Of a DNA stretch of 64,000 nt, positions 5,782 through 64,000 are shown one piece after another (the stretch's first letter is position 1; each line of letters begins with the position of its first letter). Origin of the DNA: an uncultured Candidatus Saccharibacteria bacterium (GTDB lineage: Bacteria; Patescibacteriota; Minisyncoccia; Phycocordibacterales; WO2-35-19). The position numbers and the translations under genes are program-made. The DNA lies in the NCBI GenBank assembly GCA_964534305.1, contig CAZHPR010000001.1, forward strand, positions 26,944 through 90,943, in the 5' to 3' direction. Below the pieces are notes generated by a model that was not told where the DNA came from, searched no databases, and saw nothing but the letters and a program-made list of their open reading frames with translations.

Positions 5782-6501
5782 ATGAAAAACTCAAAATTAA
5801 AAATAATTTCAGCTATGGTGCTAGGTGCGTTGATGCTACCGATTGTCTCTAGCGCACAGACAACCACTCCGGTAAAAAACAGAGAGGAAGTAAAGGCTCA
5901 AATAGAGCAGAGGAAGCAGGAGATGGAAGAAAAAAGAGAAGAATTAAAAAACGAGTTTGAACTAAAAAAACAAGAATTTGAGGCGAAGAGAGAACAGATA
6001 AAGCAGGAGATGGAACTAAAAAAGGAGGAGATAAAACAAAAGGTAGAAGAGAGAAAGCAGTTAGTAGATAGCAAAATAGAAGAAAGGCTGTCAAACTTCG
6101 TAGAGAAACTTGAAAAAAGATTTAATTCTGCGATAGAAAGATTGGAAGTATTGGTAACTAGGATAGAGTCTAGAATAGCAAAGATGGATGAAGAAGATAT
6201 AGACACAACAAAGGCTAAGGGATTGCTGGCTGAAGCCAAGACAAAAATAGCAACCGCAAAGACAAGTGTAGCCGCAATAAGCACAAAAGCAGACGAGGTA
6301 CTTGCGGGAGATACAAAAGCTCTATACCCAGAGCTTAAGGAAGCAGTAGAAAAGGCAAAAAATGATATAAAAGAGGCTCATGCTGCTCTAGTAAAGGTAG
6401 TGAGTGAGCTAAAACCTGGATTCTATAAGAGTCGAGATGGTAAAATGTCTACCACCACCCCTTCAACATCAACAACCACTGCTACGACAACATCAAATTA
6501 A
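5782..6501 (+). CDS. Secreted coiled-coil protein with a Thr-rich C-terminus (hypothetical)
   Basis: N-terminal signal peptide (MKNSKLKIISAMVLGALMLPIVSSAQ), heptad-like K/E repeats, C-terminal TTTPSTSTTTATTTSN. Confidence 0.5.
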   Translation: MKNSKLKIISAMVLGALMLPIVSSAQTTTPVKNREEVKAQIEQRKQEMEEKREELKNEFELKKQEFEAKREQIKQEMELKKEEIKQKVEERKQLVDSKIEERLSNFVEKLEKRFNSAIERLEVLVTRIESRIAKMDEEDIDTTKAKGLLAEAKTKIATAKTSVAAISTKADEVLAGDTKALYPELKEAVEKAKNDIKEAHAALVKVVSELKPGFYKSRDGKMSTTTPSTSTTTATTTSN

Positions 6502-6521
6502 CAAAATAATCAAAAAATAAA

Positions 6522-6833
6522 ATGGACACTTTTAACCCAAACCAAATGCCTCCTATGAGCGGGATGGAACCACAGAAAAAATCTTCTGGCCCACTTATAG
6601 CGGTAATAATAATACTTGCTCTAATAGTTATTGGAGGGTTGTACTTCCTAAAAGAGAAGATGGCTAGAGACACTTATGTCCCACCACAGGAAGACTCTGT
6701 CACACAGGAGCTACAGGCGCAAAGCACCTCCGATGATCTAAACAGCATTGAAGCTGATCTAAACGCAACAGATGTGGACAACCTAGATCAAGGAGCTTCT
6801 GTTATCCAAGCAGAGATAGAGTCTCAGATTTAA
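6522..6833 (+). CDS. Small single-pass membrane protein (hypothetical)
   Basis: One hydrophobic helix (LIAVIIILALIVIGGLYFL) followed by an acidic tail. Confidence 0.4.
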   Translation: MDTFNPNQMPPMSGMEPQKKSSGPLIAVIIILALIVIGGLYFLKEKMARDTYVPPQEDSVTQELQAQSTSDDLNSIEADLNATDVDNLDQGASVIQAEIESQI

Positions 6834-6918: not shown

Positions 6919-7986
6919 ATGAGTCAATATAAACTAAAAACAAATAAGCTGCCAAAAGGAGAAATTGAGATAGAGGGAGAGATAGACTCTTCCCTACTTC
7001 TTGAAGCACGAAAAAAAGCATTAAAAAAGATTGGCCAAGATGTTGAGGTTGACGGATTTCGCAAAGGAAATGTGCCAGAGAAAATAATCATAGATAAATT
7101 TGGAGAATCTTTCATCATGGAAGAGGCGGCTGAAATACTTCTTCAAGAACACTACCCTCTTATAGTTAAAGAGATGGACCTAGACACCATAGGTAGACCA
7201 AATATTTCTATAACAAAATTGGCCTTGGGCAATCCGCTCCAGTTCAAAATAAAAACAGCAACCCTACCAGAAATAAAACTCCCTGATTACAAAAAGATTG
7301 CGAAAGAAAAAAACTCAAAAAAAATTGAGATCCCGGAAGTTACCGAAAAGGAAATTGATGAGATACTACTACAGATAAGAAAAAATAAAGCTCATTTTGA
7401 CTGGCATAAATCAAATCCAAAAGAAGATGGCCACAACCATCCTGATTTTGAAAAAGAAGAAAATCTTCCAGTCTTAGATGACCAGCTTGCAAAAGAAGCG
7501 GGAAACTTTAAGGATCTTGCCGAGATGAAAGAAAAGATAAAAGAGAATATAAAAAAAGACAAAGAACTTAGGGAAGTAGAAAAAAGAAGGGGTGAAATAA
7601 TCGACGCCCTTGTAAAAGAAACTGATTTTGAGGTACCAGACATTTTGGTAGAGGCGGAAGTTTCAAAATATATGGCACAAATGCAAGACGATATAGAGAG
7701 AGCTGGGGGCAAGTTTAGCGAGTATCTATCACACATAAAGAAAACTGAAGATGATCTGAGGAAGGAGTGGCGAGAGCCGGCTGAAAATAAAGCAAAGGTA
7801 CAGCTTATATTCAACAAAATTGCCGAGACAGAAAAGTTGGAACCAAACAAAGAAATCCTAGAAAATGAAGTAAAACACTTGCTAGAACATTACCCAAATT
7901 CTAGCGAAGAAAACGCTCGTATCTACGTTTCTACTATTCTCCTCAACAGCGAAGTCCTCAAACTCCTAGAGAACCAAAAGGCTTAA
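6919..7986 (+). CDS. tig: Trigger factor with ribosome-binding N domain and C domain but no recognisable PPIase domain
   Basis: N-terminal GFRKGNVP signature and a tig-clpP neighbourhood. No FKBP-like segment is seen. Start is probably MSQYKL at 6919 rather than the ORF-track start at 6895. Confidence 0.75.
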   Translation: MSQYKLKTNKLPKGEIEIEGEIDSSLLLEARKKALKKIGQDVEVDGFRKGNVPEKIIIDKFGESFIMEEAAEILLQEHYPLIVKEMDLDTIGRPNISITKLALGNPLQFKIKTATLPEIKLPDYKKIAKEKNSKKIEIPEVTEKEIDEILLQIRKNKAHFDWHKSNPKEDGHNHPDFEKEENLPVLDDQLAKEAGNFKDLAEMKEKIKENIKKDKELREVEKRRGEIIDALVKETDFEVPDILVEAEVSKYMAQMQDDIERAGGKFSEYLSHIKKTEDDLRKEWREPAENKAKVQLIFNKIAETEKLEPNKEILENEVKHLLEHYPNSSEENARIYVSTILLNSEVLKLLENQKA

Positions 7987-8679
7987 GGCGGCGATGGCGG
8001 CGGTTTCGGCGCGCAAAACAAGAGAACCCAGAGAATACACTTGGGCTTCTTTTTGTTTAAATAGATCTAACTCCTTTGGAGACCAGCCACCTTCAGGCCC
8101 GATGAATAAGTTTACAGACTCCAGATTATAGTTTTCAGTTCCCCTCTTCTTTGCAAGGAGAGGGGTTAGGGGTGAGGTAGAAGAAGGCTCCAATATAATC
8201 ACCCCTCCTTCTGTTTCCTCAATACTATCTGCTAACTGCTTAATGCTATTTATCTCCGGTACATCAGCTCTGCCGCACTGCTCGCTTGCCTCTATCGCAA
8301 TCCTCTTTGCTCTTTCAAGGTTAAAACCTTTTTTCTCACTTCTTTCTGAAAGGATTGGAATTATTTTTGAGACCCCAAGTTCTGTCGCCTTTTCTATCAC
8401 CAGCTCAAGGTTATCTTTTTTTATCAAAGAAATATAAAGACTAATTTTATTTTTAGGGACCACTCCCCCTCTCTCTTCTAAGAGTCTCACCCAAGCTTCT
8501 CGATTGTTTATTGTTTCTATAACGTATAGGTATTCGCTCCCCCTACCGTCAAAGAGGACAACCTCGCTCCCAACATTGTATCTAAAGACACTTCTCCACT
8601 GGTGCATCAAATCTCTATCCTGCAACAGGGTCCTATCGCTACCTAAATCCTTTTTTATATAAAACCTATGTAGTCGCAT
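7966..8679 (-). CDS. rsmE: 16S rRNA (uracil1498-N3)-methyltransferase RsmE carrying a 15-aa in-frame repeat-element insertion
   Basis: RsmE family motifs (…LFIGPEGGWSPKE…, N-terminal PUA-like domain). The STSPLTPLLAKKRGT segment is encoded by the palindromic element at 8139-8183. Confidence 0.8.
   Translation of the reverse strand: MRLHRFYIKKDLGSDRTLLQDRDLMHQWRSVFRYNVGSEVVLFDGRGSEYLYVIETINNREAWVRLLEERGGVVPKNKISLYISLIKKDNLELVIEKATELGVSKIIPILSERSEKKGFNLERAKRIAIEASEQCGRADVPEINSIKQLADSIEETEGGVIILEPSSTSPLTPLLAKKRGTENYNLESVNLFIGPEGGWSPKELDLFKQKEAQVYSLGSLVLRAETAAIAALSLLVL
8139..8183. repeat. G+C-rich palindromic element (solo copy) inserted in frame within rsmE
   Basis: GTTCCCCTCTTCTTTGCAAGGAGAGGGGTTAGGGGTGAGGTAGAA. 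The same 45-bp unit is also at 11931-11975. Confidence 0.85.
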
Positions 8680-11693: not shown

Positions 11694-11739
11694 ATACAGA
11701 ACCCCCCCTTAACAAATCTAAAAGTAACCCGTTTTTCTT

Positions 11740-11779
11740 CCCTCCCCTGATCAAGGGGAGGGTTGGGTGGGGTTATTCC
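11740..11779. repeat. Palindromic element variant (solo copy) directly after the stop codon of the MBL ribonuclease gene
   Basis: CCCTCCCCTGATCAAGGGGAGGGTTGGGTGGGGTTATTCC. The hairpin loop resembles the 17609 element and the tail resembles the main family. Confidence 0.7.
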
Positions 11780-11788
11780 AAGATGGGG

Positions 11789-13237
11789 TTAATCCAAAAA
11801 GTATTCCTTACCGGGTTCGGGATAAATTGCTTCTATATCTAAGTACTCACGGATGCGTTGAGAGAGAAAGAGCGAAGAACGCGGTTCACCCATGATAGTA
11901 AAAACTTTTTTGAGAGAGTGTTGTTGTGTGGTTCCCCTCTCCTTTGCAAGGAGAGGGGTTAGGGGTGAGGTAGAACCTTCCGAAGCCTCCTCGACAAACT
12001 CCACCAAATTATCAGAATCTTTGTGTGAAGAGTAACCCTTTATTGTCTCTATCTTTGCTCTTACTTTTATTTTTTGACCATTTATCTTGACCTCACTCTT
12101 GCCGTCCTCAAGAGCCCGGCCCAAGCTACCCAGAGTTTGATACCCAACAAGGAGGAGGGTGTTTTTGTGATCGTCCAAAATATCAGCTTCATGAGCCAAA
12201 ACCCTCCCCCCTTCAGACATACCAGAGCCAGCAATTATTATCTTCGGGCCACCTTTTTTTATAACAGACTTACTTTCTTCAAAACCGTCTACAATATTGA
12301 GGCCAGGAAAATCAAATATGTTATCGCCCCTTTTTATCTCTTCTTGTACTTCCTTTTTAAAATCAGTTGCGTATTTTTTATAGATGTTTGTTACTTTTAT
12401 AGCCAGTGGAGAATCAAGATAGACAGGGACTTTCTCTATCTCCCCATCTTCTATCATGTTGTTTAGTTCGTACAGCATTACCTGAGTCCTTTCTATAGAA
12501 AAAGCTGGTATAACAATGGTTCCACCCCTCTTTATCCCCTCTTGGATCACCCCCTTAAACCTCTCTCTTCTTTCTTCTTTACTCTCATGATTTCTATCTC
12601 CATAAACACTCTCCATAACAATATAATTTGCTCCTTCTGGAATTTCTGTATCCGGTAATAATGGCGAAGGAGAATTGCCCAAATCTCCTGTAAAGGAAAT
12701 CTTGCGTACTTCATTCAAATCGAAAGATCCATAAGAAATATTTATTATGGCAGAACCGAGTATATGGCCAGCATTTTGCATATCTATCTTTATATCTTTA
12801 CCTAGGTTTATTGTTTGATTGTAATCGCAACCCTCCCACAAAGACATCGTTTTTTCTATATCCTTCTCTTCATAGAGATTTTTGTCGCGATGCCTAGACC
12901 TAAAAACTTTAAGAGCATCTAGGAGCATTGGCCTTGCAAGCTCCAGGGTTTCCTTTGTTGAAATTATTTTTCCACCAAAGCCCTCTCTCACAAGCTTTGG
13001 TATTTTGCCAATATGATCCATATGAGCATGAGTCACCAGTAGAAAATCAAAAGAAGACGGGTCGTATTTGAATGGCTCAAAGTTTTTTAGTTCATCATTG
13101 AAACTACCCTGGAGCAGACCACAATCAACCATAATCTTTGTACCAGCATAAAGAAATTCTATGTTTGCACCGGTTGCGGTCCCTACCCCACCCCAAAAAA
13201 TTAGTTTTGCATTTTTATCTTTATTTTGTTGACTCAT
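11789..13237 (-). CDS. MBL-fold beta-CASP ribonuclease (RNase J / CPSF-like) carrying a 15-aa in-frame repeat-element insertion
   Basis: HxHxDH motif (VTHAHMDHIG) and a beta-CASP-like central region. The C-terminal segment STSPLTPLLAKERGT is encoded by the element at 11931-11975. Confidence 0.7.
   Translation of the reverse strand: MSQQNKDKNAKLIFWGGVGTATGANIEFLYAGTKIMVDCGLLQGSFNDELKNFEPFKYDPSSFDFLLVTHAHMDHIGKIPKLVREGFGGKIISTKETLELARPMLLDALKVFRSRHRDKNLYEEKDIEKTMSLWEGCDYNQTINLGKDIKIDMQNAGHILGSAIINISYGSFDLNEVRKISFTGDLGNSPSPLLPDTEIPEGANYIVMESVYGDRNHESKEERRERFKGVIQEGIKRGGTIVIPAFSIERTQVMLYELNNMIEDGEIEKVPVYLDSPLAIKVTNIYKKYATDFKKEVQEEIKRGDNIFDFPGLNIVDGFEESKSVIKKGGPKIIIAGSGMSEGGRVLAHEADILDDHKNTLLLVGYQTLGSLGRALEDGKSEVKINGQKIKVRAKIETIKGYSSHKDSDNLVEFVEEASEGSTSPLTPLLAKERGTTQQHSLKKVFTIMGEPRSSLFLSQRIREYLDIEAIYPEPGKEYFLD
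11931..11975. repeat. G+C-rich palindromic element (solo copy) inserted in frame within the MBL ribonuclease gene
   Basis: GTTCCCCTCTCCTTTGCAAGGAGAGGGGTTAGGGGTGAGGTAGAA. Confidence 0.85.
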
Positions 13238-17150: not shown

Positions 17151-17199
17151 TGGGCTAAATATAGCATTATTATTTTATTTATAAACCCCCTCCGGCTTA

Positions 17200-17635
17200 A
17201 AGCCACCTCCCCCTTAATCAGGGGGAGGAAACACCCCACCCATCACAAATTATTTCTTATTTTTAAAATTACTTCCTCCACCCCATTATCAATCTCTTTA
17301 TTCCAAAACCTTAAAGTCTTATACCCCAAGTCTTCCATAAACAACTGTCTTACCCTGTCATACTCTTTATTTTGATTGTGAATTTCTCCGTCAATTTCGA
17401 TAACTAATTTTTTCTCTGGACAAAAGAAATCAACTACATAACCTCCAATACTATGCTGTCTCCTAAATTTCACCCCCAACTGACTACGTCTCAAATACCA
17501 CCAAATTTTATTCTCTTGCGGAGTTGGGTTTCTTCTAAGTTCCTTTCTATGCTCCCGGAGGCTGTATAGATTATGCAACTTCTTCATAACGATAAGTAGC
17601 AGTTTTTTCTTTCCCCTGATTAAGGGGAAAGTGGC
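17200..17635. mobile_element. Small cassette of one DUF559 endonuclease gene flanked by about 30-bp inverted repeats, inserted between adk and map
   Basis: Left arm AAGCCACCTCCCCCTTAATCAGGGGGAGGAAA (17200-17231). Right arm TTTCTTTCCCCTGATTAAGGGGAAAGTGGCC (17605-17635) is its imperfect reverse complement. Confidence 0.55.
17243..17587 (-). CDS. DUF559 (Vsr-like, PD-(D/E)xK) endonuclease-domain protein
   Basis: …ENKIWWYLRRSQLGVKFRRQHSIGGYVVDFFCPEKKLVIEIDG…LRFWN… The ORF-track start at 17638 reads through the right inverted repeat. The Met at 17587 is the more likely start. Confidence 0.8.
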   Translation of the reverse strand: MKKLHNLYSLREHRKELRRNPTPQENKIWWYLRRSQLGVKFRRQHSIGGYVVDFFCPEKKLVIEIDGEIHNQNKEYDRVRQLFMEDLGYKTLRFWNKEIDNGVEEVILKIRNNL

Positions 17636-17652
17636 CAAAGGCCGATAGGGGT

Positions 17653-18243
17653 TTACAGGTTTATTTTTTCTAATATCTCCCTATGCACATCTTCTATTGG
17701 TTGTTCACCATTTATTTCTACAAATTTGTAGTAAGGATTTGATTTAAAATGTTCTAGCGCAGGCTTTACACTCTTTTCGTACCATTCCATTCTTCTTTTT
17801 ATCTCTTCTGATTTATCATCCACCCTCCCCCTCTCCTCAAGCCTTTCAGTTGCCCATTCTGGGGAAACAAGAATTGAGATTATAGTAGGATTCTCTCTCT
17901 TATAAAACTGGAGCGCCGTATCCAAGATCCAAGCCTCATGCACCTTCCTTGATATACCATCTATTACCAAATGCTCACTCCCCGTCATATTATCAACAAA
18001 GAATTGTGACCAAAGCCATATCGGAAGAAATTCTGGCATAAGCCCGCCCGAATCAATAACCTCCTTGGTTTTCTTTGCAGAAAAAGAATCCTGTTTTGCA
18101 AATTCTCGTAGTTTGCCTCCAGTTTCTAGGTACAAAACTTTCTTTTCTGGATCAACTTGCTCTAACTTTTCTATAAGCAATTTTGCCTGTGTACCCTTAC
18201 CAGAACCAGAAGGACCAAAAAATATAAATGTTTGAGGATTCAT
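17653..18243 (-). CDS. adk: Adenylate kinase
   Basis: P-loop GPSGSGKGTQ. Confidence 0.9.
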   Translation of the reverse strand: MNPQTFIFFGPSGSGKGTQAKLLIEKLEQVDPEKKVLYLETGGKLREFAKQDSFSAKKTKEVIDSGGLMPEFLPIWLWSQFFVDNMTGSEHLVIDGISRKVHEAWILDTALQFYKRENPTIISILVSPEWATERLEERGRVDDKSEEIKRRMEWYEKSVKPALEHFKSNPYYKFVEINGEQPIEDVHREILEKINL

Positions 18244-22753: not shown

Positions 22754-22843
22754 GGAGACGTGGCTGAGCTGGTCGAAAGCGCCTCACTGCTAACGAGGTA
22801 GGCCCTTTAAAAGGTCTCGAGGGTTCGAATCCCTCCGTCTCCG
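22754..22843 (+). tRNA. tRNA-Ser (anticodon GCU), class II with a long variable arm
   Basis: Manual fold: acceptor GGAGACG/CGTCTCC, anticodon loop CTGCTAA, long variable arm, T-loop GGTTCGAATCC. No encoded CCA. Confidence 0.8.
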
Positions 22844-29755: not shown

Positions 29756-29830
29756 ACCGCCCTTAGCTCAGTTGGTTAGAGCACAGAGCTTATACCTCTG
29801 GGGTCCTAGGTTCGAATCCTAGAGGGCGGA
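29756..29830 (+). tRNA. tRNA with anticodon UAU (tRNA-Ile2-type, AUA-reading)
   Basis: Manual fold: acceptor CCGCCCT/AGGGCGG, D-arm GCTC…GAGC, anticodon stem CAGAG/CTCTG with loop CTTATAC, T-arm CTAGG-TTCGAAT-CCTAG. No encoded CCA. Confidence 0.7.
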
Positions 29831-32955: not shown

Positions 32956-33373
32956 GGGGATGATCGGCCTAGACAATAAGAATATCTTTATAAATGCCAA
33001 AGAGAGCTGTGGTGACTCTTAAATCCGCCATAAATGATAACTGCAAACAAGGTTGTCACAAAAGCTAAGTCCGTTGCTTCTCCATACTTTGGGGTCAACG
33101 ATTTCGCTTTCGCTTACGTTAGAGCTTAATTAAGTTTCTTTCCTAAGCGACGCTATCCTTCTTATGTCTCATACGGAAGATCATGGTGTAATAAATTGAG
33201 GCTCTGGAAAATAGTTCTCCCCTATTTTCCGAAATGTTGGGAGATCGAAACTTTAGAATTTCGTCTGTTTGTATCTAGAGTTTTTAAATGGGCCTAGCCC
33301 AAAAAGCAGTCTATCTCTGGTAGAAATTTATAAAATACCTTATTGCATGCGCGTTCGATTCGCGCCATCTCCA
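32956..33373 (+). ncRNA. ssrA: tmRNA (SsrA)
   Basis: 5' GGGGAUGAUCGG… pairs with 3' …CAUCUCC-A. tRNA-like T-arm GCGCGTTCGATTCGCGC. Lies immediately downstream of smpB. Candidate tag frame ends in …FAFAYVRA-TAA. Confidence 0.7.
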
Positions 33374-33446
33374 CAAAATTAACGAGCGAACAAGGTGAGC
33401 GACTATAATTTTGTAGGACCCTGAGTTTATCGAAGGGTTTTTAATT

Positions 33447-43090: not shown

Positions 43091-43140
43091 CCTCCCCTCT
43101 CCTCTTGCAAGGAGAGGGGTTGGGGGTGAGGTAGATTATT
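43091..43140. repeat. Palindromic element (solo copy) abutting or overlapping the fusA stop codon
   Basis: CCTCCCCTCTCCTCTTGCAAGGAGAGGGGTTGGGGGTGAGGTAGATTATT. Confidence 0.8.
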
Positions 43141-45292: not shown

Positions 45293-45411
45293 AATAAATT
45301 ATTAACTACTAACTATTTTAAATTTAACTAAACAAAACCCTGGACCACTCGATAAATAAATTGAACAAACTTATTCCAGACAAGCAGCCAGTAATTTTTG
45401 CTAAGCAAAAA

Positions 45412-45904: not shown

Positions 45905-45950
45905 TTCCTCCCCTCTCTTAGATTAAGAGAGGGTTAGGGTGAGTTATTTT
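45905..45950. repeat. Palindromic element (solo copy) filling the rpsL-rpsG intergenic spacer
   Basis: CCTCCCCTCTCTTAGATTAAGAGAGGGTTAGGGTGAGTTATTTTTA. Confidence 0.8.
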
Positions 45951-47320: not shown

Positions 47321-47383
47321 TAGCTAGCATCTAGCATTAAGTATCTAAGTAAAAGTCCTAAACCAAGGTTATTTTTTGTTTGT

Positions 47384-47428
47384 CCCCCTCTCTTAATTTA
47401 AGAGAGGGGTTAGGGGTGAGTTATTTTT
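47384..47428. repeat. Palindromic element (solo copy) that encodes the last 5 codons and the stop codon of the ComEC MBL-domain gene
   Basis: CCCCCTCTCTTAATTTAAGAGAGGGGTTAGGGGTGAGTTATTTTT. Confidence 0.85.
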
Positions 47429-48300
47429 AGATTTACCCCATCACTCTTGAAAATAATGCTACCAGAAGTATCAGTGCGGAGAGTTTTTATATTTAATTTC
47501 TCCAAGAGGGCTAGTACTTCTTGATGCGGATGACCGTAGCGATTGTCCTTACCACTAGAGACAACTGCATACTCCGGATTTACCGCTCTTACAAAATTAT
47601 CAGAACTAGAAGTTCTTGAGCCGTGATGTCCAAGTTTTAATACATCACTTTCTAGTCCCAAGGAGAGTCCTTGGGATCTATATTTGTTTACCAAATAATT
47701 TTCTATTGCACTCGGCGAATCTCCGGTAAGCAAAAATTCATTCTCGCCATAAACAAGACGAGCAACGATTGAGGCAGTATTTGTCTCCCACCCACTTACA
47801 TCTTTTTCTGGAAACAAGATTTCCAAAAATGCTCCCCCACCCAAATTGATTTGCATGCCAGCTCTTGCAAGAATCTTTTTTATTTTTCCTCCACTTTCTA
47901 ACTTGCCAACTTGCGTCTTTAAACTTTCATATATATCTGTATCCGACTCTACCCCGGGTTCCAAAAAAAGATCTACCTCATAATTCTCTAAAATATCAAC
48001 GAGTCCCCCCACATGATCCGCATCTGGATGAGTTGCAACAACAACATCAAGAGACCGATCATAAAACTTCATCACCTTAGAAATTTCTCGAAGTACCCCC
48101 CTCCCCACCCCACCATCAACAAGAACTTGGTTGCCTGAGGGAGACTCTATAAAAATGGCATCCCCTTGCCCAACGTCCAAAAAGGCAACCGTGAGCAGTC
48201 CTCTATTATTTCTGAGATCCAAAAAAACAAAGAGAGAAATTAGGATAGCGAGAATAAACAGGATGCTCACTAAGAGTCTAATTTTTAATTTTGAACTCAT
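47410..48300 (-). CDS. Stand-alone ComEC-type metallo-beta-lactamase domain protein
   Basis: N-terminal TM anchor followed by …VAFLDVGQGDAIFIE… and …ATHPDADHVGG… (the MBL part of ComEC). Confidence 0.7.
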   Translation of the reverse strand: MSSKLKIRLLVSILFILAILISLFVFLDLRNNRGLLTVAFLDVGQGDAIFIESPSGNQVLVDGGVGRGVLREISKVMKFYDRSLDVVVATHPDADHVGGLVDILENYEVDLFLEPGVESDTDIYESLKTQVGKLESGGKIKKILARAGMQINLGGGAFLEILFPEKDVSGWETNTASIVARLVYGENEFLLTGDSPSAIENYLVNKYRSQGLSLGLESDVLKLGHHGSRTSSSDNFVRAVNPEYAVVSSGKDNRYGHPHQEVLALLEKLNIKTLRTDTSGSIIFKSDGVNLKITHP

Positions 48301-54983: not shown

Positions 54984-55063
54984 ACTTTATATTTTAGCAG
55001 ATTAATAACTCACCCCCTATCCCCCTCTCTTACAACAAGAGAGGGGGGACCAAAAAATACAAT

Positions 55064-55624
55064 CTATTTCTGATTAAAATACTCTGGAATCTCATTTGCT
55101 TTAATAATAATCCTGTTTGGGAACATATTTCGTAGCTCATCCACCAAGGGATAAAATTTTGTGTTAACCACTAAAGATCCTACATTAATTTTAAACAAAC
55201 CTGTTTCGTCTGGTCTTTGTGGTTTTCCACCTGGAAATGGGTTGTCTTTTTCTAAAACAACTAAAAAATTACACTGGGTCATAAATCCTCCAAACATACC
55301 GCCTAATTTTCCAACGTCTCCTTTTATTCCACCATTTGAAAGAATGTTCAGAGCTGCTGTTACCCATTCAAGGTCTCTACCCCTAGTAATTCCGTGTGCC
55401 AAATAATTATTTAAAACTTCTGTTGGTATATCTCTCAGATAATAGTCAATGGCATTTTGATACCTTTCGGTTGCAAAAGGAGGATTCCATCCGTTTACAT
55501 CTTGATTAGCTTGAGCTGTTATTTCGGCATCGTATTTTTCAAGTAGCTCCTGAGCCACTTTCTCAGATTCCCCAAAAGGGACGAATTCTTGTTTTGGTTG
55601 TGGGTTTTGTGGTTGATTTTCCAT
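55064..55624 (-). CDS. Hypothetical protein (cargo gene of the cassette)
   Basis: ORF only. Gly-rich central segment. No family assignment. Confidence 0.4.
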   Translation of the reverse strand: MENQPQNPQPKQEFVPFGESEKVAQELLEKYDAEITAQANQDVNGWNPPFATERYQNAIDYYLRDIPTEVLNNYLAHGITRGRDLEWVTAALNILSNGGIKGDVGKLGGMFGGFMTQCNFLVVLEKDNPFPGGKPQRPDETGLFKINVGSLVVNTKFYPLVDELRNMFPNRIIIKANEIPEYFNQK

Positions 55625-55647
55625 ATTATCCAGGCCGCTAATTATTC

Positions 55648-55998
55648 TTATAATTTTAATTCTGTACTTCTTCTGATATTTTCTAAAACTTTATCCAAGT
55701 TGTTTAAAATATCATTATTCCAAAATCTTATAGTTCTTATATCTTTATCTTTTAAAAAGTCCTCGCGTTCTTGGTCGTATTCTACAGCACTTTTATGTTG
55801 TTCACCATCTAGTTCTATCGCAAGTCTTTTTTCTGCACAAAAGAAATCTAGTATATACGGGCCTGCACTATATTGTCTTAAAAATTTTAAATTGTTTACT
55901 TGTCTGTTCCTAATTTTTGACCAAAGGAGTCTTTCTGCTTCAGTTTGATTTGACCTGAGTTCACGTCGTCGCTCTAGTTGGTTTTGGTCGTTATACAT
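55648..55998 (-). CDS. DUF559 (Vsr-like) endonuclease-domain protein
   Basis: …EAERLLWSKIRNRQVNNLKFLRQYSAGPYILDFFCAEKRLAIELDGEQH…IRFWNN… Start set at the ATG at 55998; the ORF-track TTG start reads into the repeat. Confidence 0.85.
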   Translation of the reverse strand: MYNDQNQLERRRELRSNQTEAERLLWSKIRNRQVNNLKFLRQYSAGPYILDFFCAEKRLAIELDGEQHKSAVEYDQEREDFLKDKDIRTIRFWNNDILNNLDKVLENIRRSTELKL

Positions 55999-56171
55999 AT
56001 TTGTATGATTCCGGTTTCCCCCTTGTTGTAAGGGGTGAGAATGCGCAGTATTCGCAAGACTTTTTGAGATATTTTTATGCAATTAAAATATCCAAAAAGT
56101 GTACAGTCCTTGTAAGGGATTAGGGGGGTTATTCCCCCTATCTTGTTGTAAGAGAGGGGTTAGGGGGTGAG

Positions 56172-56939
56172 TTATTTTACATCCACACTTTTCAAAATTT
56201 CTGGAAACTCTTCTTTTTTTAGTGAAGCATGACCAACAAGAAATCCTTCTACATTACCGTAGTCTATTATGGCTCTAGCATTCGGGGCCTCAACAGCAGC
56301 TCCATAGAGGATACGCACAGAAGAAGCAATATCTTTACCAAACAATTCACCCAAAGATTTTCTGATAAAAAGGACTGTCTCGTGTATATCAGTTGGACTC
56401 ATTGCTTCTCTATAAGATTTTCCTATCGTCCAGACCGGCTCATAGGCGATAATAAGTCCCAACATATATTTCTTTTGTAAGCCGGAGATAGAATTTTTAA
56501 GTTGTTCTTTTAAGAACTCGAGATGACTTCCTTCTCTATCTCTAACACTTTCCCCGATACACAGGATTGGAGTAAGACCAGCTTCAAACACTGACTCTAA
56601 TTTTTTGTTTATTATTTTATTATCCTCACCCATTGCCCTCCTCTCAGAGTGCCCGACCAAAACAAACCTAACTCCCAAATCTTTGAGCATTTGATTGCTC
56701 ACTTCCCCAGTAAAGGCGCCCTTTTCTTCAAAATACGAGTTTTGTGCTGTAATAAATAGATTTTTAGGTCTGCTTATTTTTGACAACAGCCCAAGATACA
56801 CAAAAGGAGGAGCGACCAAAACCTCTGTATTTTTGAGTACTGAGGCGGTCTTTTTTGTAAAATTAAATATACTTTTTGCTTCTTCAAGAGAACTCGGGTT
56901 CATCTTCCAATTTGCTATAACTATATTTTTCTTTTTCAT
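56172..56939 (-). CDS. tpiA: Triosephosphate isomerase
   Basis: …IANWKMN… and …VGHSERR… motifs. Its stop codon lies inside the right inverted repeat. Confidence 0.9.
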   Translation of the reverse strand: MKKKNIVIANWKMNPSSLEEAKSIFNFTKKTASVLKNTEVLVAPPFVYLGLLSKISRPKNLFITAQNSYFEEKGAFTGEVSNQMLKDLGVRFVLVGHSERRAMGEDNKIINKKLESVFEAGLTPILCIGESVRDREGSHLEFLKEQLKNSISGLQKKYMLGLIIAYEPVWTIGKSYREAMSPTDIHETVLFIRKSLGELFGKDIASSVRILYGAAVEAPNARAIIDYGNVEGFLVGHASLKKEEFPEILKSVDVK

Positions 56940-60908: not shown

Positions 60909-62117
60909 TTATTTTATGGCATCAACAAGCGAGTATGTTGGCAAAAGCATTGCAATTGCAAAGAGACCCACTGCGATACCTATAAATATCATAAGTATTG
61001 GTTCTATTATGGTAGAAAGATCCTTGGTCTTTTGATCAACCTCCGCTTCATAAAAATCGGCTATATTGTCTAGCATATCTGTCACCTTTCCGGTCTCCTC
61101 ACCAACTGCAAGCATCTCACTCACAAATATTGGGTATAGATTAAAGGGTTTGGATAAACACTCAGAAAGTAATTCTCCTGTTTGAACTCTTTTGGTAGCT
61201 CCTTGAATAATTGCCTTAAAATAATGGTTTCTTAGAACTCCAGCGGTTATATCAAGGGCTGAAACTATATCCACCCCAGACGATATAAGAGAAGATAGGG
61301 TACGAGATGTTCTAGCAGCGTTGACTTCTCTAGTCATCGTACCAATAACTGGCAGATGAAGAAAAACAAAATCAGCAATATTCTTACCTCTCTTGGTTTT
61401 TAAGAAACTTGTGACACCAAATATAACCGCGACCGCAACCCCGAAGTTTATAAGCAAATTGTTTCTAATAAAATCACTTATCGCAATAATTATCCTTGTT
61501 GGTAAGGGCAGGTTTATATTCAGTCCTCTAAAAGTTTCGGTGAGAGTCGGCACCATATAAATCATAAGCAGGATACCCATTACAATCATAAGACTGATTA
61601 TTATGGAGGGATACATCATTGCCCCCTTTATTTTTTTGGTCAATTGACTTGATTTTTCTAGCTGACTTGCTACAACTCGCAACGAAAAAGAAAGCTTACC
61701 AGATTCTTCGCCTGCCTTAACCATCGAAACAAATATATCAGAGAAAATATCTTTATAGCTCTCCATTGCCTTGGATAGAGTATCTCCTTTGTTTATAGAA
61801 TCATAAAGCCCTTGGAGGACCGAAACAAATTTTTTATTCTTTGACTGTTTCTGCATGATGCTTATCGCCCTTGAAACAGAGAGACCAGCATCTATCATAA
61901 CCGCCAAATTTTTGGCAAAAGATATCACTTCTTGCGCCTTAACCCTTTTTAGAAAAGAGAAATTTAGAGATATTTTTCTACCAGAAACCTCTTCAACCGA
62001 GACAACGGTTGCCAGGTTTTTGCGCACCGCAAGGTAAAGCTCCTGTTTATTCTCAAATTCTCTTGTCTCTTCGTATTCTTTACCGTCCTTTATTGCTTTA
62101 TATTTGTACAACGACAT
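60909..62117 (-). CDS. pilC: Type IV pilus assembly platform protein PilC (GspF family)
   Basis: Two T2SS-F repeats and three TM helices. Confidence 0.85.
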   Translation of the reverse strand: MSLYKYKAIKDGKEYEETREFENKQELYLAVRKNLATVVSVEEVSGRKISLNFSFLKRVKAQEVISFAKNLAVMIDAGLSVSRAISIMQKQSKNKKFVSVLQGLYDSINKGDTLSKAMESYKDIFSDIFVSMVKAGEESGKLSFSLRVVASQLEKSSQLTKKIKGAMMYPSIIISLMIVMGILLMIYMVPTLTETFRGLNINLPLPTRIIIAISDFIRNNLLINFGVAVAVIFGVTSFLKTKRGKNIADFVFLHLPVIGTMTREVNAARTSRTLSSLISSGVDIVSALDITAGVLRNHYFKAIIQGATKRVQTGELLSECLSKPFNLYPIFVSEMLAVGEETGKVTDMLDNIADFYEAEVDQKTKDLSTIIEPILMIFIGIAVGLFAIAMLLPTYSLVDAIK

Positions 62118-62235
62118 AAATAGAAAATTAATTTTCTATTTAATTATATCAGTATAAAAAAATTTTTTTATAGAATATGTAAATAACTCACCCCCTGCCC
62201 CCTCTCTTACAACAAGAGAGGGGGTAAGAAAAAAA

Positions 62236-62610
62236 TTACTCAGGTCTGCAATATATCTCTAATCTAATATCACTCGGATCATCAAACCAGATAAATTCTT
62301 TATCACCATACTTATCAATTTTGATTCCGCTGTTTTTTATACCTACTTTATTTAAAACTCTCTCGAGTTCTCTTAATTCCTCTCCTGTTTTTACTCCAAA
62401 AGCCAAATGGTTCAAACTGGTTTTGTCTTTATCTGATTTTTCGTATTCTCCATAAGGCAGACCAAAAAATATTTTGGTTTCTCCAATTTTGTAAGCAACC
62501 TGATTTTTATCTTGATAGTCTGGTTTACCAAGAAAAGAAGAATAGAATTTTTCTGTCTTCTCAATGTTCTTAACTATCAAAACTATGTGGTCTATATATT
62601 TAGGGTGCAT
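62236..62610 (-). CDS. VOC-family (glyoxalase/bleomycin-resistance/dioxygenase) protein
   Basis: …IDHIVLIVKNIEKTEKFY… N-terminal beta-alpha-beta-beta-beta module. Confidence 0.7.
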   Translation of the reverse strand: MHPKYIDHIVLIVKNIEKTEKFYSSFLGKPDYQDKNQVAYKIGETKIFFGLPYGEYEKSDKDKTSLNHLAFGVKTGEELRELERVLNKVGIKNSGIKIDKYGDKEFIWFDDPSDIRLEIYCRPE

Positions 62611-62614
62611 ATTT

Positions 62615-62968
62615 TTATAGTTTATTTTTTAAAGAATTTTCTATTATAACTTTCAAAACTCCTTCAATATCTTTTACTACTTCATTATTCCAAAATCTTA
62701 TAGTTCTTATATCTTTATCTTTTAAAAAGTCCTCGCGTTCTTGGTCGTATTCTACAGCACTTTTATGTTGTTCACCATCTAGTTCTATCGCAAGTCTTTT
62801 TTCTGCACAAAAGAAATCTAGTATATACGGGCCTGCACTATATTGTCTTAAAAATTTTAAATTGTTTACTTGTCTGTTCCTAATTTTTGACCAAAGGAGT
62901 CTTTCTGCTTCAGTTTGATTTGACCTGAGTTCACGTCGTCGCTCTAGTTGGTTTTGGTCGTTATACAT
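62615..62968 (-). CDS. DUF559 (Vsr-like) endonuclease-domain protein, second near-identical copy
   Basis: Identical to the 55648 copy except for the C-terminal 20-25 residues. Confidence 0.85.
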   Translation of the reverse strand: MYNDQNQLERRRELRSNQTEAERLLWSKIRNRQVNNLKFLRQYSAGPYILDFFCAEKRLAIELDGEQHKSAVEYDQEREDFLKDKDIRTIRFWNNEVVKDIEGVLKVIIENSLKNKL

Positions 62969-63141
62969 ATTTGTATGATTCCGGTTTCCCCCTTGTTGTA
63001 AGGGGTGAGAATGCGCAGTATTCGCAAGACTTTTTGAGATATTTTTATGCAATTAAAATATCCAAAAAGTGTACAGTCCTTGTAAGGGATTAGGGGGGTT
63101 ATTCCCCCTATCTTGTTGTAAGAGAGGGGTTAGGGGGTGAG

Positions 63142-64000
63142 TTATTCCGAAACCACCCTGAGCACTTCCTCAATTGTTGTCAATCCTTGAGCAGCCTTGA
63201 AGATACCATCTTCCATCATGGTGAGCATCCCCTCTTTTTTTGCTTGCAGTTCTATATCTTCAGTTGTTCCGCCTTTGATAATTATATCCTTGATCGCACT
63301 TGAAACGTTGAGCACCTCATAGATACCAACTCTACCCTTAAAACCCTCCTCACCCACATCTTTGTTTGGTTTGTAAAAAGGTACGTTTTTCCATTCGTCT
63401 TTATTTCCTATTATTTTCTCTTCTTTCAAAGCCTTGAGTACTCTGTCCATATCAATAACCTTTGCAATGGAATCAACCTCGGCTTGAGTAAGGTAGTGTT
63501 TCTCACCTCGATCTACCAACTTTCTTACCAATCTCTGACCGATAACAACATCAAGAGTTGAGATCATGAGAAATGGCTCTACCTTCATATCTATAAGTCT
63601 AGGCACAGCACCAGCCGCTGAGTTGGTGTGTAAAGTAGAGAGAACCAGGTGTCCAGTAAGAGAAGCGTTGATAGCAAGAGAGGCGGTCTCATTGTCTCTA
63701 ATCTCTCCAACCATTATGATATCCGGGTCCTGTCTCACAAGAGTACGGAGTCCGGCTGCAAAGGTAAGACCTATTTCAGGCTTAACCTGAGTCTGATTAA
63801 CTCTTTTCATCTGGTATTCAATCGGATCTTCAATAGTAGAAATATTTACGTCTGGAACATTTAAGATATCAAGCATTGTATAGAGGGTGGTGGACTTTCC
63901 GCTTCCAGTAGGACCAGTTGTAAGTACCATACCGGTTGTGTGCTGCAAAGCCTTGTGCAAAACATCAAGACCTTCTCCATGAAAACCAAGGGCTTCTAGA
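63142..64000 (-). CDS. pilB: Type IV pilus assembly ATPase PilB/GspE, C-terminal ATPase domain; the gene continues beyond the window end
   Basis: Walker A GPTGSGKSTT, Asp box, Walker B and His box of GspE-family ATPases. Its stop codon lies inside the right inverted repeat of the cassette. Confidence 0.8.
   Translation of the reverse strand, partial: LEALGFHGEGLDVLHKALQHTTGMVLTTGPTGSGKSTTLYTMLDILNVPDVNISTIEDPIEYQMKRVNQTQVKPEIGLTFAAGLRTLVRQDPDIIMVGEIRDNETASLAINASLTGHLVLSTLHTNSAAGAVPRLIDMKVEPFLMISTLDVVIGQRLVRKLVDRGEKHYLTQAEVDSIAKVIDMDRVLKALKEEKIIGNKDEWKNVPFYKPNKDVGEEGFKGRVGIYEVLNVSSAIKDIIIKGGTTEDIELQAKKEGMLTMMEDGIFKAAQGLTTIEEVLRVVSE

Follow-up and report, generated by a model that had tools for sequence, protein, structure and literature searches.

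A DUF559 nuclease gene and its flanking BoxC-type repeat units in a cassette between pilB and pilC of a Candidatus Saccharibacteria genome

How does a discrete, repeat-bounded pair of genes come to lie between two neighbouring genes of a pilus operon, and what keeps it there? The question is raised by a 64,000-nucleotide (nt) stretch of DNA from an uncultured Candidatus Saccharibacteria bacterium (contig CAZHPR010000001.1), referred to here, at its full length, as 'the window'. At positions 62182-63146 of the window a cassette of 965 bases separates pilB from pilC. It carries a gene for a DUF559 nuclease and a gene for a protein of the VOC/glyoxalase fold, and is enclosed by inverted repeats. 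We describe a computational analysis that followed up an earlier note on this interval, in which the cassette was taken for an inserted, cargo-bearing element. The answer that we favour, tentatively and with a little less than even confidence, is that DUF559 is the nuclease partner of the repeat units beside it, as the RAYT protein is of REP sequences, and that the cassette persists, and is exchanged between genomes, by recombination.

Anatomy of the cassette

Every gene of the window between 43 and 64 kilobases (kb) lies on the minus strand. Read 5' to 3' on that strand, the locus consists of pilB, a repeat arm, a 134-nt leader, DUF559, VOC, the arm again in inverted orientation, a 64-nt spacer and pilC. 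Comparison genomes and contigs are given below by L numbers. The features are:

63142 to beyond 64000 (cut by the window end), minus strand: 3' part of pilB (T2SSE ATPase; E = 1e-79)
63103-63146, minus strand: upstream repeat unit, of the BoxC/PIT/TM type (nhmmer E = 2e-13)
62969-63102, minus strand: leader, from the unit to the start of DUF559, with a degenerate second hairpin unit, which an extra segment of 74 nt (63006-63079) interrupts
62615-62968, minus strand: DUF559 nuclease gene, Vsr-like PD-(D/E)XK, 117 amino acids (aa) (PF04480, E = 3.7e-33)
62236-62610, minus strand: VOC/glyoxalase-fold passenger gene, 124 aa (PF00903, E = 2.7e-5)
62182-62227, plus strand: downstream repeat unit, an inverted copy of the upstream unit (nhmmer E = 3e-15; hairpin z = -5.3)
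60909-62117, minus strand: pilC (T2SSF platform protein; E = 4e-57)

The arms (62182-62224 and 63104-63146) are 43 nt each and 93% complementary, with 879 nt between them; in a transcript reading through both, they would pair into a 43-bp stem. The upstream unit reads AATAACTCACCCCC-TAA-CCCCTCTCTTA-caac-AAGATAGGGGG, and its TAA (63142-63144) is the stop codon of pilB. The earlier note had described an inverted-repeat unit with VOC and DUF559 between pilB and pilC, had placed the pilB stop inside the right-hand repeat, and had assigned the repeats to the family that encloses a first cassette elsewhere in the window; all three statements hold, and the first cassette (55004-56176) has the same arms. 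The finding is real and beyond chance. The 25-nt hairpin core has five matches in the window and none in 100 shuffles, and the 15-nt arm end has seven matches, a number reached by no shuffle (mean 2.0). The description of the cassette as the insertion of a cargo-bearing element stands in part: it does form a discrete unit, bounded by repeats and with a passenger, and breaks neither reading frame, but recent insertion is not established.

The repeat unit and its nuclease

The unit is about 45 nt long and consists of a GC hairpin of 10-11 base pairs (bp) and a mirror-image third block that ends in ATAACTCAYCCC. This is the three-block hairpin-plus-mirror architecture of an intrastrand triplex motif, the triplex itself being predicted only. 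The reverse complement, CCCCTCTCTT..AAGAGAGGGG TTA GGGGGTGAG, resembles the catalogued Escherichia coli copies, CCCTCTCCC..GGGAGAGGG TTA GGGTGAGGG, and on sequence and layout the arms belong to the known BoxC/PIT/TM triplex-motif family, rather than being the transposon-type ends that the reading in the earlier note would imply. Repeats of this family have been catalogued since the 1990s. In E. coli MG1655 there are 23 copies, all intergenic, and others occur in cyanobacteria and many other bacteria (Holder et al. 2015, PMC4666352). Triplex formation in vitro was shown for the E. coli motifs. In megaBLAST comparisons between strains, regions with a motif were unchanged in 38% of cases, against more than 90% for controls; the same authors found no mobility gene near any copy, and called the mechanism of spread unclear (PMC4666352). 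Like the E. coli repeats, those of the window comprise a pyrimidine stem arm, a loop, a purine stem arm, TTA and a mirror third block (GGGGTGAG), and they are dispersed, often in inverted pairs, and tied to rearrangement from strain to strain. They differ in being AT-extended (the ATAACTCA end and the TTACAACAAG loop) and in their Patescibacteria host. And whereas that survey found no protein associated with E. coli BoxC and reports no MG1655 copy within a gene, the window units bracket a nuclease and a passenger, and two lie in coding genes.

The structure of the unit appears to be what is conserved. In the 27 units compared, which come from the window and its relatives, pairing in the 10-bp stem reaches 98.4%, and five of its ten pairs have undergone compensatory C-G to T-A changes, an outcome reached in none of 500 shuffles. 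The outer block, ATAACTCAYCCC, mirrors the stem, and a three-way co-variation links its Y position to stem pair 4 (18 units C/C/G, 8 T/T/A and one exception); in some cases the two ends of one element have the third block in different states. Such co-variation points to selection on the structure of the unit. No Rfam match was obtained for the arms or the leader, with the gathering threshold or with a permissive one. Two other identities for the arms were considered and rejected. An intrinsic terminator would require a terminator-like site on the gene strand, and a scan found none at the arm hairpins; for the E. coli motifs, tests showing no terminator activity are cited in PMC4666352. An integron gene cassette does not fit either: the ends, AAATAAC/GTTATTT, do not match the attC pattern RYYYAAC/GTTRRRY, the units are inverted, and the cassette has no integrase.

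Searched with a profile made from the units, the window shows nine full copies, of which the two cassettes account for four; the other five stand alone. The solo units are:

47383-47425, minus strand: provides the last five codons (KITHP) and the stop of a metallo-beta-lactamase (MBL)-fold open reading frame (ORF), 47410-48300
45908-45948, minus strand: in the rpsL-rpsG spacer
43092-43133, minus strand: directly after the fusA stop codon
11932-11972, minus strand: in frame in a beta-CASP/MBL ORF, 11789-13237 (peptide ...STSPLTPLLAKERG...)
8140-8179, minus strand: in frame in an RsmE-like ORF, 7966-8679 (peptide ...STSPLTPLLAKKRG...)

Each of the last two contributes the peptide STSPLTPLLAK(K/E)RG. 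In-frame repeats that add a short peptide to proteins are known from the Rickettsia palindromic elements, which the solo units resemble in this respect (e.g. STSPLTPLLAKERG); these elements are a different sequence family in a different host, and the window units, unlike them, have a linked nuclease gene. The solo copies are conserved in L169 and L172, and no polymorphism for them was seen between these strains and the window. In L169 the MBL-fold gene is called six residues shorter (290 instead of 296 aa) despite the unit being present.

DUF559 is a large family of nucleases for which we know of no established function. The window protein scores 114 bits against a Pfam gathering cut-off of 20.6, and its D52, E63-x-D65, H69 core is intact; D52, E63, D65, H69, R79, R92 and N95 are invariant across 14 elements. 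The nearest solved structure is 3HRL from Neisseria gonorrhoeae (E = 8e-18), and the protein belongs to the same NCBIfam family, PRK09767, as E. coli YcjD. An HUH Y1 transposase (TnpA_REP) was not found, the only Pfam and NCBIfam assignments being DUF559, MTES_1575 and PRK09767. PADLOC defence models gave no meaningful match.

A metagenome scan with the window protein returned 80 loci, of which we examined the 19 closest relatives (62-78% identity). In all 19, ATAACTCAYCCC lies 55-115 nt upstream and GGGRTGAGTTAT downstream of the gene, and the layout is the same: a unit, DUF559, zero or one variable passenger gene, and an inverted unit. Eleven are minimal elements, most of them 469-546 nt long, with one of 329 nt in which the nuclease gene is truncated. 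The other eight (727-1410 nt) have a single co-oriented passenger 3' of DUF559. The ends, ATAAC...GTTAT, are conserved across 22 elements. A control matched for geometry bears out the association: flanking inverted repeats that score at least 14 are found at 22 of 60 real positions and at one of 153 decoys. More distant DUF559 genes, like a third copy in the window (17182-17655), are accompanied by other hairpin subtypes or by units in the opposite orientation. In viral contigs we found neither the unit pattern nor a DUF559 relative, and a phage vector is not supported.

Passengers in the eight larger elements encode a tRNA-binding domain protein, a nucleoside hydrolase, a LysE-type exporter, a HIT protein, a peptidase S51, an ITPase-like protein, a 61-aa ORF of no assigned family and a decayed methyltransferase; a more distant relative (L145) has a GNAT acetyltransferase in the slot. 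For the VOC passenger of the window, the earlier note had raised resistance phenotypes of the bleomycin, fosfomycin or methylglyoxal type. We find no support for a resistance role. The protein exceeds no NCBIfam cut-off for the fosfomycin, bleomycin or glyoxalase I families (its best match, SMU1112c/YaeR, scores 50.6 bits against a cut-off of 140, and FosB 32.7 against 171), and homologues that are 89%, 83% and 80% identical occur in ordinary chromosomal contexts, without DUF559 and without element ends. Because of these homologues, the VOC gene was probably drawn from the normal gene pool of the phylum. Upstream of two VOC homologues (L174:3150-3490 and L181:3210-3490) a tRNA gene contains about 270 nt of intervening sequence, which may be a group I intron. 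The window itself has one tmRNA and two tRNA genes by Rfam (32956-33376, 29757-29830 and 22754-22843), unrelated to the cassette.

The association of nuclease and repeat recurs in E. coli. In MG1655, ycjD is the only DUF559 gene, and the end of its reading frame falls within a degenerate unit (TCACCCTCTCCC...). Some 150 nt beyond the end of the gene, read directly from the sequence, is CCCTCGCCCCTCTGGGGAGAGGGTTAGGGTGAGGGG, which is TM_ECO no. 9 of the 23 copies in Table 1 of PMC4666352; a 56-nt query around it finds, at the median, 19 places in an E. coli genome. With only 23 copies in 4.6 megabases, it is unlikely that one came to lie beside the sole DUF559 gene by chance. YcjD and 3HRL are members of the same protein family as the window nuclease; ycjD, unlike the window cassette, has no passenger slot and has units only downstream. 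The locus is itself a presence/absence site, ycjD replacing eefRABCD between sapF and fabI in phylogroups A, B1 and C (PMC12817139). Two further features of the locus (L183; MG1655 1,351,204-1,351,830) are a perfect 17-bp palindrome, TCACCTCATTCTGACAA...TTGTCAGAATGAGGTGA, that precedes ycjD, and, 3' of the gene, a second copy of part of its 3' end, enclosed by two BoxC-type units. The searchable literature yielded no link of DUF559 or ycjD to BoxC/PIT/TM repeats, and both the pairing and the passenger slot appear to be new.

Empty and occupied sites

The gap between pilB and pilC is at most 116 nt in 61 of the 70 related Patescibacteria genomes that have both genes, so the two are normally adjacent, as the earlier note had stated. 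The gap between tpiA and pgk, where the first cassette lies, does not exceed 195 nt in 48 of 50. Nor is the pairing of VOC and DUF559 a lineage-wide fixture with decayed repeats, the pattern in which the earlier note would have seen ancient synteny: strains with about 98.4% identity differ in whether they have the cassette. Alleles were compared in contigs from other sequencing runs that encode a PilC identical to that of the window. L001, L002 and L004 are empty, and have pilB, 71 nt and pilC without a cassette. L003 and L088 are occupied, and L003 is 100% identical to the window. Among the sequencing runs, SRR13355620-22 represent the occupied state, and SRR27197508 and SRR12404947 the empty one. 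The empty junction is ...GTTTCTGAGTAG/AGTTATTTACATATTC..., and the occupied junction, with the cassette in parentheses, is ...GTTTCGGA(ATAACTCACC...GGTGAGTTAT)TTACATATTC...; the sequence of the empty site is GTTTCTGAGTAGAGTTATTTACAT. The empty allele has GTAGAGTTAT, in which 8 of 10 bases match the right end of the cassette. No target-site duplication is present in this direct comparison, or at any of the 22 elements.

The two alleles differ in their flanks on one side only, in the following tract:

63154-63232, no strand assigned: 3' end of pilB, differing from the empty allele at 12 sites, all synonymous (15%; the figure further upstream is 1.3%)

Compared with L001, 12 of 79 nt differ at the end of pilB, all of them synonymous, and none of 160 differ on the pilC side. 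From this one-sided tract we infer that the alleles differ by recombinational replacement with a diverged allele; one exchange point appears to lie in pilB and the other at the right end of the cassette. Outgroups do not set the direction, which may be either gain of this copy or loss from the empty allele: of 45 positions, L089 differs from the window at 12 and from L001 likewise at 12, and L005 is of no help. The empty allele could represent loss, and the site may have been occupied for long, because the closest other lineages hold related cassettes or relics at the same two sites. In L089, whose PilB is 84% and whose PilC is 65% identical, a DUF559 cassette with a decayed methyltransferase lies between pilB and pilC, with relic ends flanking it. 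L097 has a LysE-carrying cassette directly after the 3' end of a tpiA-like gene and before pgk. L005, the closest genome in our collection, has derivatives at both of the sites that hold the window cassettes (1350-1535 and 6386-6551): a miniature, gene-less inverted pair of units between pilB and pilC, and a decayed relic ending in GGGATGAGTTAT between tpiA and pgk. These resemble miniature inverted-repeat transposable elements or REPINs. In five further groups of sites, the flanking genes are shared and the passenger content differs (e.g. L092 and L095, or L093 and L101).

DUF559 sequences group by lineage, not by site: those of L089 and L097 are 81% identical, and same-site pairs from different lineages 74% and 69%. 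The window has two further DUF559 elements:

55004-56176, minus strand: sister cassette (cassette 1) between tpiA and pgk, with a unit, DUF559, a 186-aa protein of no assigned family, and an inverted unit
17182-17655, minus strand: third, minimal DUF559 element without a passenger, whose protein is 43% identical and which has its own 50-nt inverted pair, TAAACCCCCTCCGGCTTAAAGCCACCTCCCCCTTAATCAGGGGGAGG, of a different GC-hairpin type

The stop codon of tpiA, too, lies within an arm of the sister cassette. The two window cassettes share a stretch of about 470 nt at 100% identity, which starts at the outer end and stops sharply within the C-terminus of DUF559, and the two proteins are identical over their first 100 or so residues. 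Clustering by lineage, together with this identical tract, argues for gene conversion between resident copies. Both cassettes have the 74-nt extra segment in the loop of the leader hairpin (56036-56109 and 63006-63079). The segment is flanked by a CCCTTACAA duplication, has a strong hairpin of its own, and is missing from cassette 1 of strain L001, from which it follows that the two were probably homogenised after the segment arose. At tpiA-pgk in strains of the same species, the contigs break inside the repeat. A solo-like hairpin of the type found in the 17182-17655 element occurs near 11.7 kb (11727-11765).

Other small inserts occupy the same kind of spacer. In a contig of the same species (L171:2146-3377, corresponding to 45294-45391 of the window), an unrelated 1.2-kb insert lies between rpsG and fusA; it holds a PaaX-like gene in its own inverted repeat of about 22 nt (CACACATCACTGACGGTCGTCA) and a small gene on the opposite strand. 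Judged by such cases, small cassettes seem to land generally in the operon spacers of this species. In four other Patescibacteria genomes, L008 (4970-6000), L070, L057 (200-1150) and L012 (5320-5998), the pilB-pilC spacer has an unrelated insert of 0.7-1.1 kb without DUF559; these inserts contain a 140-aa ORF or a 90-aa ORF without a Pfam match, or no clear ORF.

How the cassette might persist and spread

If DUF559 and the units are partners, the nuclease would recognise or cut its own flanking units, in the manner of a nuclease-repeat pair such as RAYT and REP in the REPtron. Since one nuclease is found at two sites, recognition would be of the shared units, not of two unrelated flanks. Breaks at the units would then be repaired by recombination. 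Repair would keep the cassette at fixed intergenic sites and homogenise the copies within a genome; after uptake of DNA, it would let cassettes or empty alleles replace each other between strains; and it would turn over the passenger slot and seed solo and miniature units. We infer both the action of DUF559 on the units and movement by recombination rather than transposition, and several lines of evidence favour them. For the partnership, they are the layout common to all 19 relatives and the excess of flanking repeats over the decoy control (22/60 against 1/153); a nuclease subtype that tracks the unit subtype, in the 43%-identical DUF559 at 17.2 kb and in distant relatives; the catalogued BoxC copy that ycjD adjoins; and the conservation of both the unit structure and the nuclease core. 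For recombination, they are the 470-nt tract of identity, the one-sided tract in pilB, the missing target duplications and the turnover of passengers at orthologous sites.

The nearest parallel is the REPtron, or REP-RAYT-REPIN system (PMC8266576; bioRxiv 10.1101/2021.07.10.451892). In both, a gene of single-copy type is bordered by inverted palindromic repeats, the repeats are also dispersed as singlets and inverted doublets, residence at fixed sites is long-term with vertical inheritance, and the protein subtype tracks the repeat subtype. The dispersed solo units, two of them in frame, correspond to REP singlets, and the gene-less inverted pair of L005 to REPIN doublets. The window differs in having a Vsr-like PD-(D/E)XK nuclease in place of an HUH Y1 transposase; in lacking the GTAG tetranucleotide 5' of the palindrome, where its block is ATAACTCAYCCC; in having a triplex third block; and in having a passenger slot, which the REPtron does not.

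Several points weigh against a partnership of nuclease and repeat. The solo units at 43-48 kb are in identical position in a strain 1.8% diverged, and no recent movement of a unit was seen. The palindromic co-variation could reflect binding of a protein to duplex DNA, not folded DNA, and, with no nuclease involved, the polymorphism could stem from the fact that triplex motifs are intrinsically unstable (PMC4666352). The E. coli case is a single locus, with units on one side of ycjD only, and sites common to several lineages may reflect vertical inheritance.

Two other explanations are unlikely. According to the first, DUF559 belongs to a free-standing homing endonuclease gene: it cuts the empty pilB-pilC junction and not the units, and repair from an occupied allele copies in the cassette with its flanks. 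Like such genes, including that for I-Bth0305I (EDxHD/Vsr fold, PMC3239194), the cassette has a small nuclease gene of related catalytic fold between conserved genes, is present or absent among near-identical strains with altered flanks, and has no target duplication. The 12 synonymous changes in the last 80 or so nt of pilB resemble a tract of co-conversion or immunity; in L089, too, this site is occupied; the states seen range from intact through decayed and relic to empty, as in a homing cycle; and the 8-of-10 match of GTAGAGTTAT to the right end can be read in the same sense. The strongest argument against purely site-specific homing is that the same nuclease, identical over about 100 residues, is found at two unrelated sites of one genome. 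The tract is also one-sided, with no differences toward pilC, and homing leaves the conserved units, the solo copies and the E. coli association unexplained. Unlike known homing genes, moreover, the cassette is repeat-bounded, has a passenger and, with no relatives in viral contigs, is not in a phage, intron or intein; its 117-aa nuclease has no separate DNA-binding domain, and I-Bth0305I is not among its PDB sequence matches at E<=1.

The second of these explanations, which we hold to be about as improbable, does without the nuclease: fragile, triplex-forming units stall replication and provoke insertions and deletions, and DUF559 and the passengers merely accumulate there. The triplexes formed in vitro by the E. 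coli motifs, the instability of their loci (38% against more than 90% unchanged) and the absence of any noticed mobility gene (PMC4666352) all speak for such a hotspot, as do the unrelated small inserts in operon spacers of this species and its relatives (L171, L008, L057 and L012). It leaves unexplained the fixed position and orientation of DUF559 in all 19 close relatives, in distant ones and beside E. coli BoxC, and equally the tracking of unit subtype by nuclease subtype and the invariant catalytic core. That an intact nuclease gene is fixed beside the units across phyla is the strongest argument against a purely passive fragile site.

A conventional cut-and-paste transposon or insertion sequence, with the 43-nt arms as terminal inverted repeats and DUF559 as transposase, is very improbable. 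It would account for the sharp ends of the 22 elements, for several copies at different sites of one genome and for the gene-less miniature in L005, but a target-site duplication is present at none of the 22, the elements remain at orthologous sites across lineages, and the solo units have one end only. DDE, HUH, serine and tyrosine recombinase domains are all missing, Pfam giving only DUF559/MTES_1575, and conservation of the ends is accounted for by the triplex third block. An invertible switch, in which the 43-nt inverted arms flip the cassette and so toggle its genes or pilC, can practically be dismissed: DUF559 is enriched among the targets predicted for programmed inversion (odds ratio 14, PMC9881135), but such enrichment is expected for any gene between inverted repeats, all occupied contigs (the window, L003 and L088) have one orientation, and no invertase is nearby.

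The nuclease-repeat partnership can be extended beyond the Patescibacteria. It is possible, though we think it rather doubtful, that DUF559 proteins from E. coli YcjD to the Patescibacteria are dedicated BoxC/PIT-repeat nucleases, making up a second, HUH-independent nuclease-repeat system parallel to RAYT-REP, to which Patescibacteria have added a one-gene passenger slot. If this were true, it would explain how BoxC/PIT repeats spread and why their loci are unstable, and how accessory genes are shuttled through conserved operon spacers. The pairing of DUF559 and repeat, from E. coli to the candidate phyla radiation, is for both partners a directly testable hypothesis. For the streamlined Patescibacteria, it points to a route by which single accessory genes may enter and leave core operons without polar damage, the upstream unit in both window cassettes itself providing the stop codon of the upstream gene.

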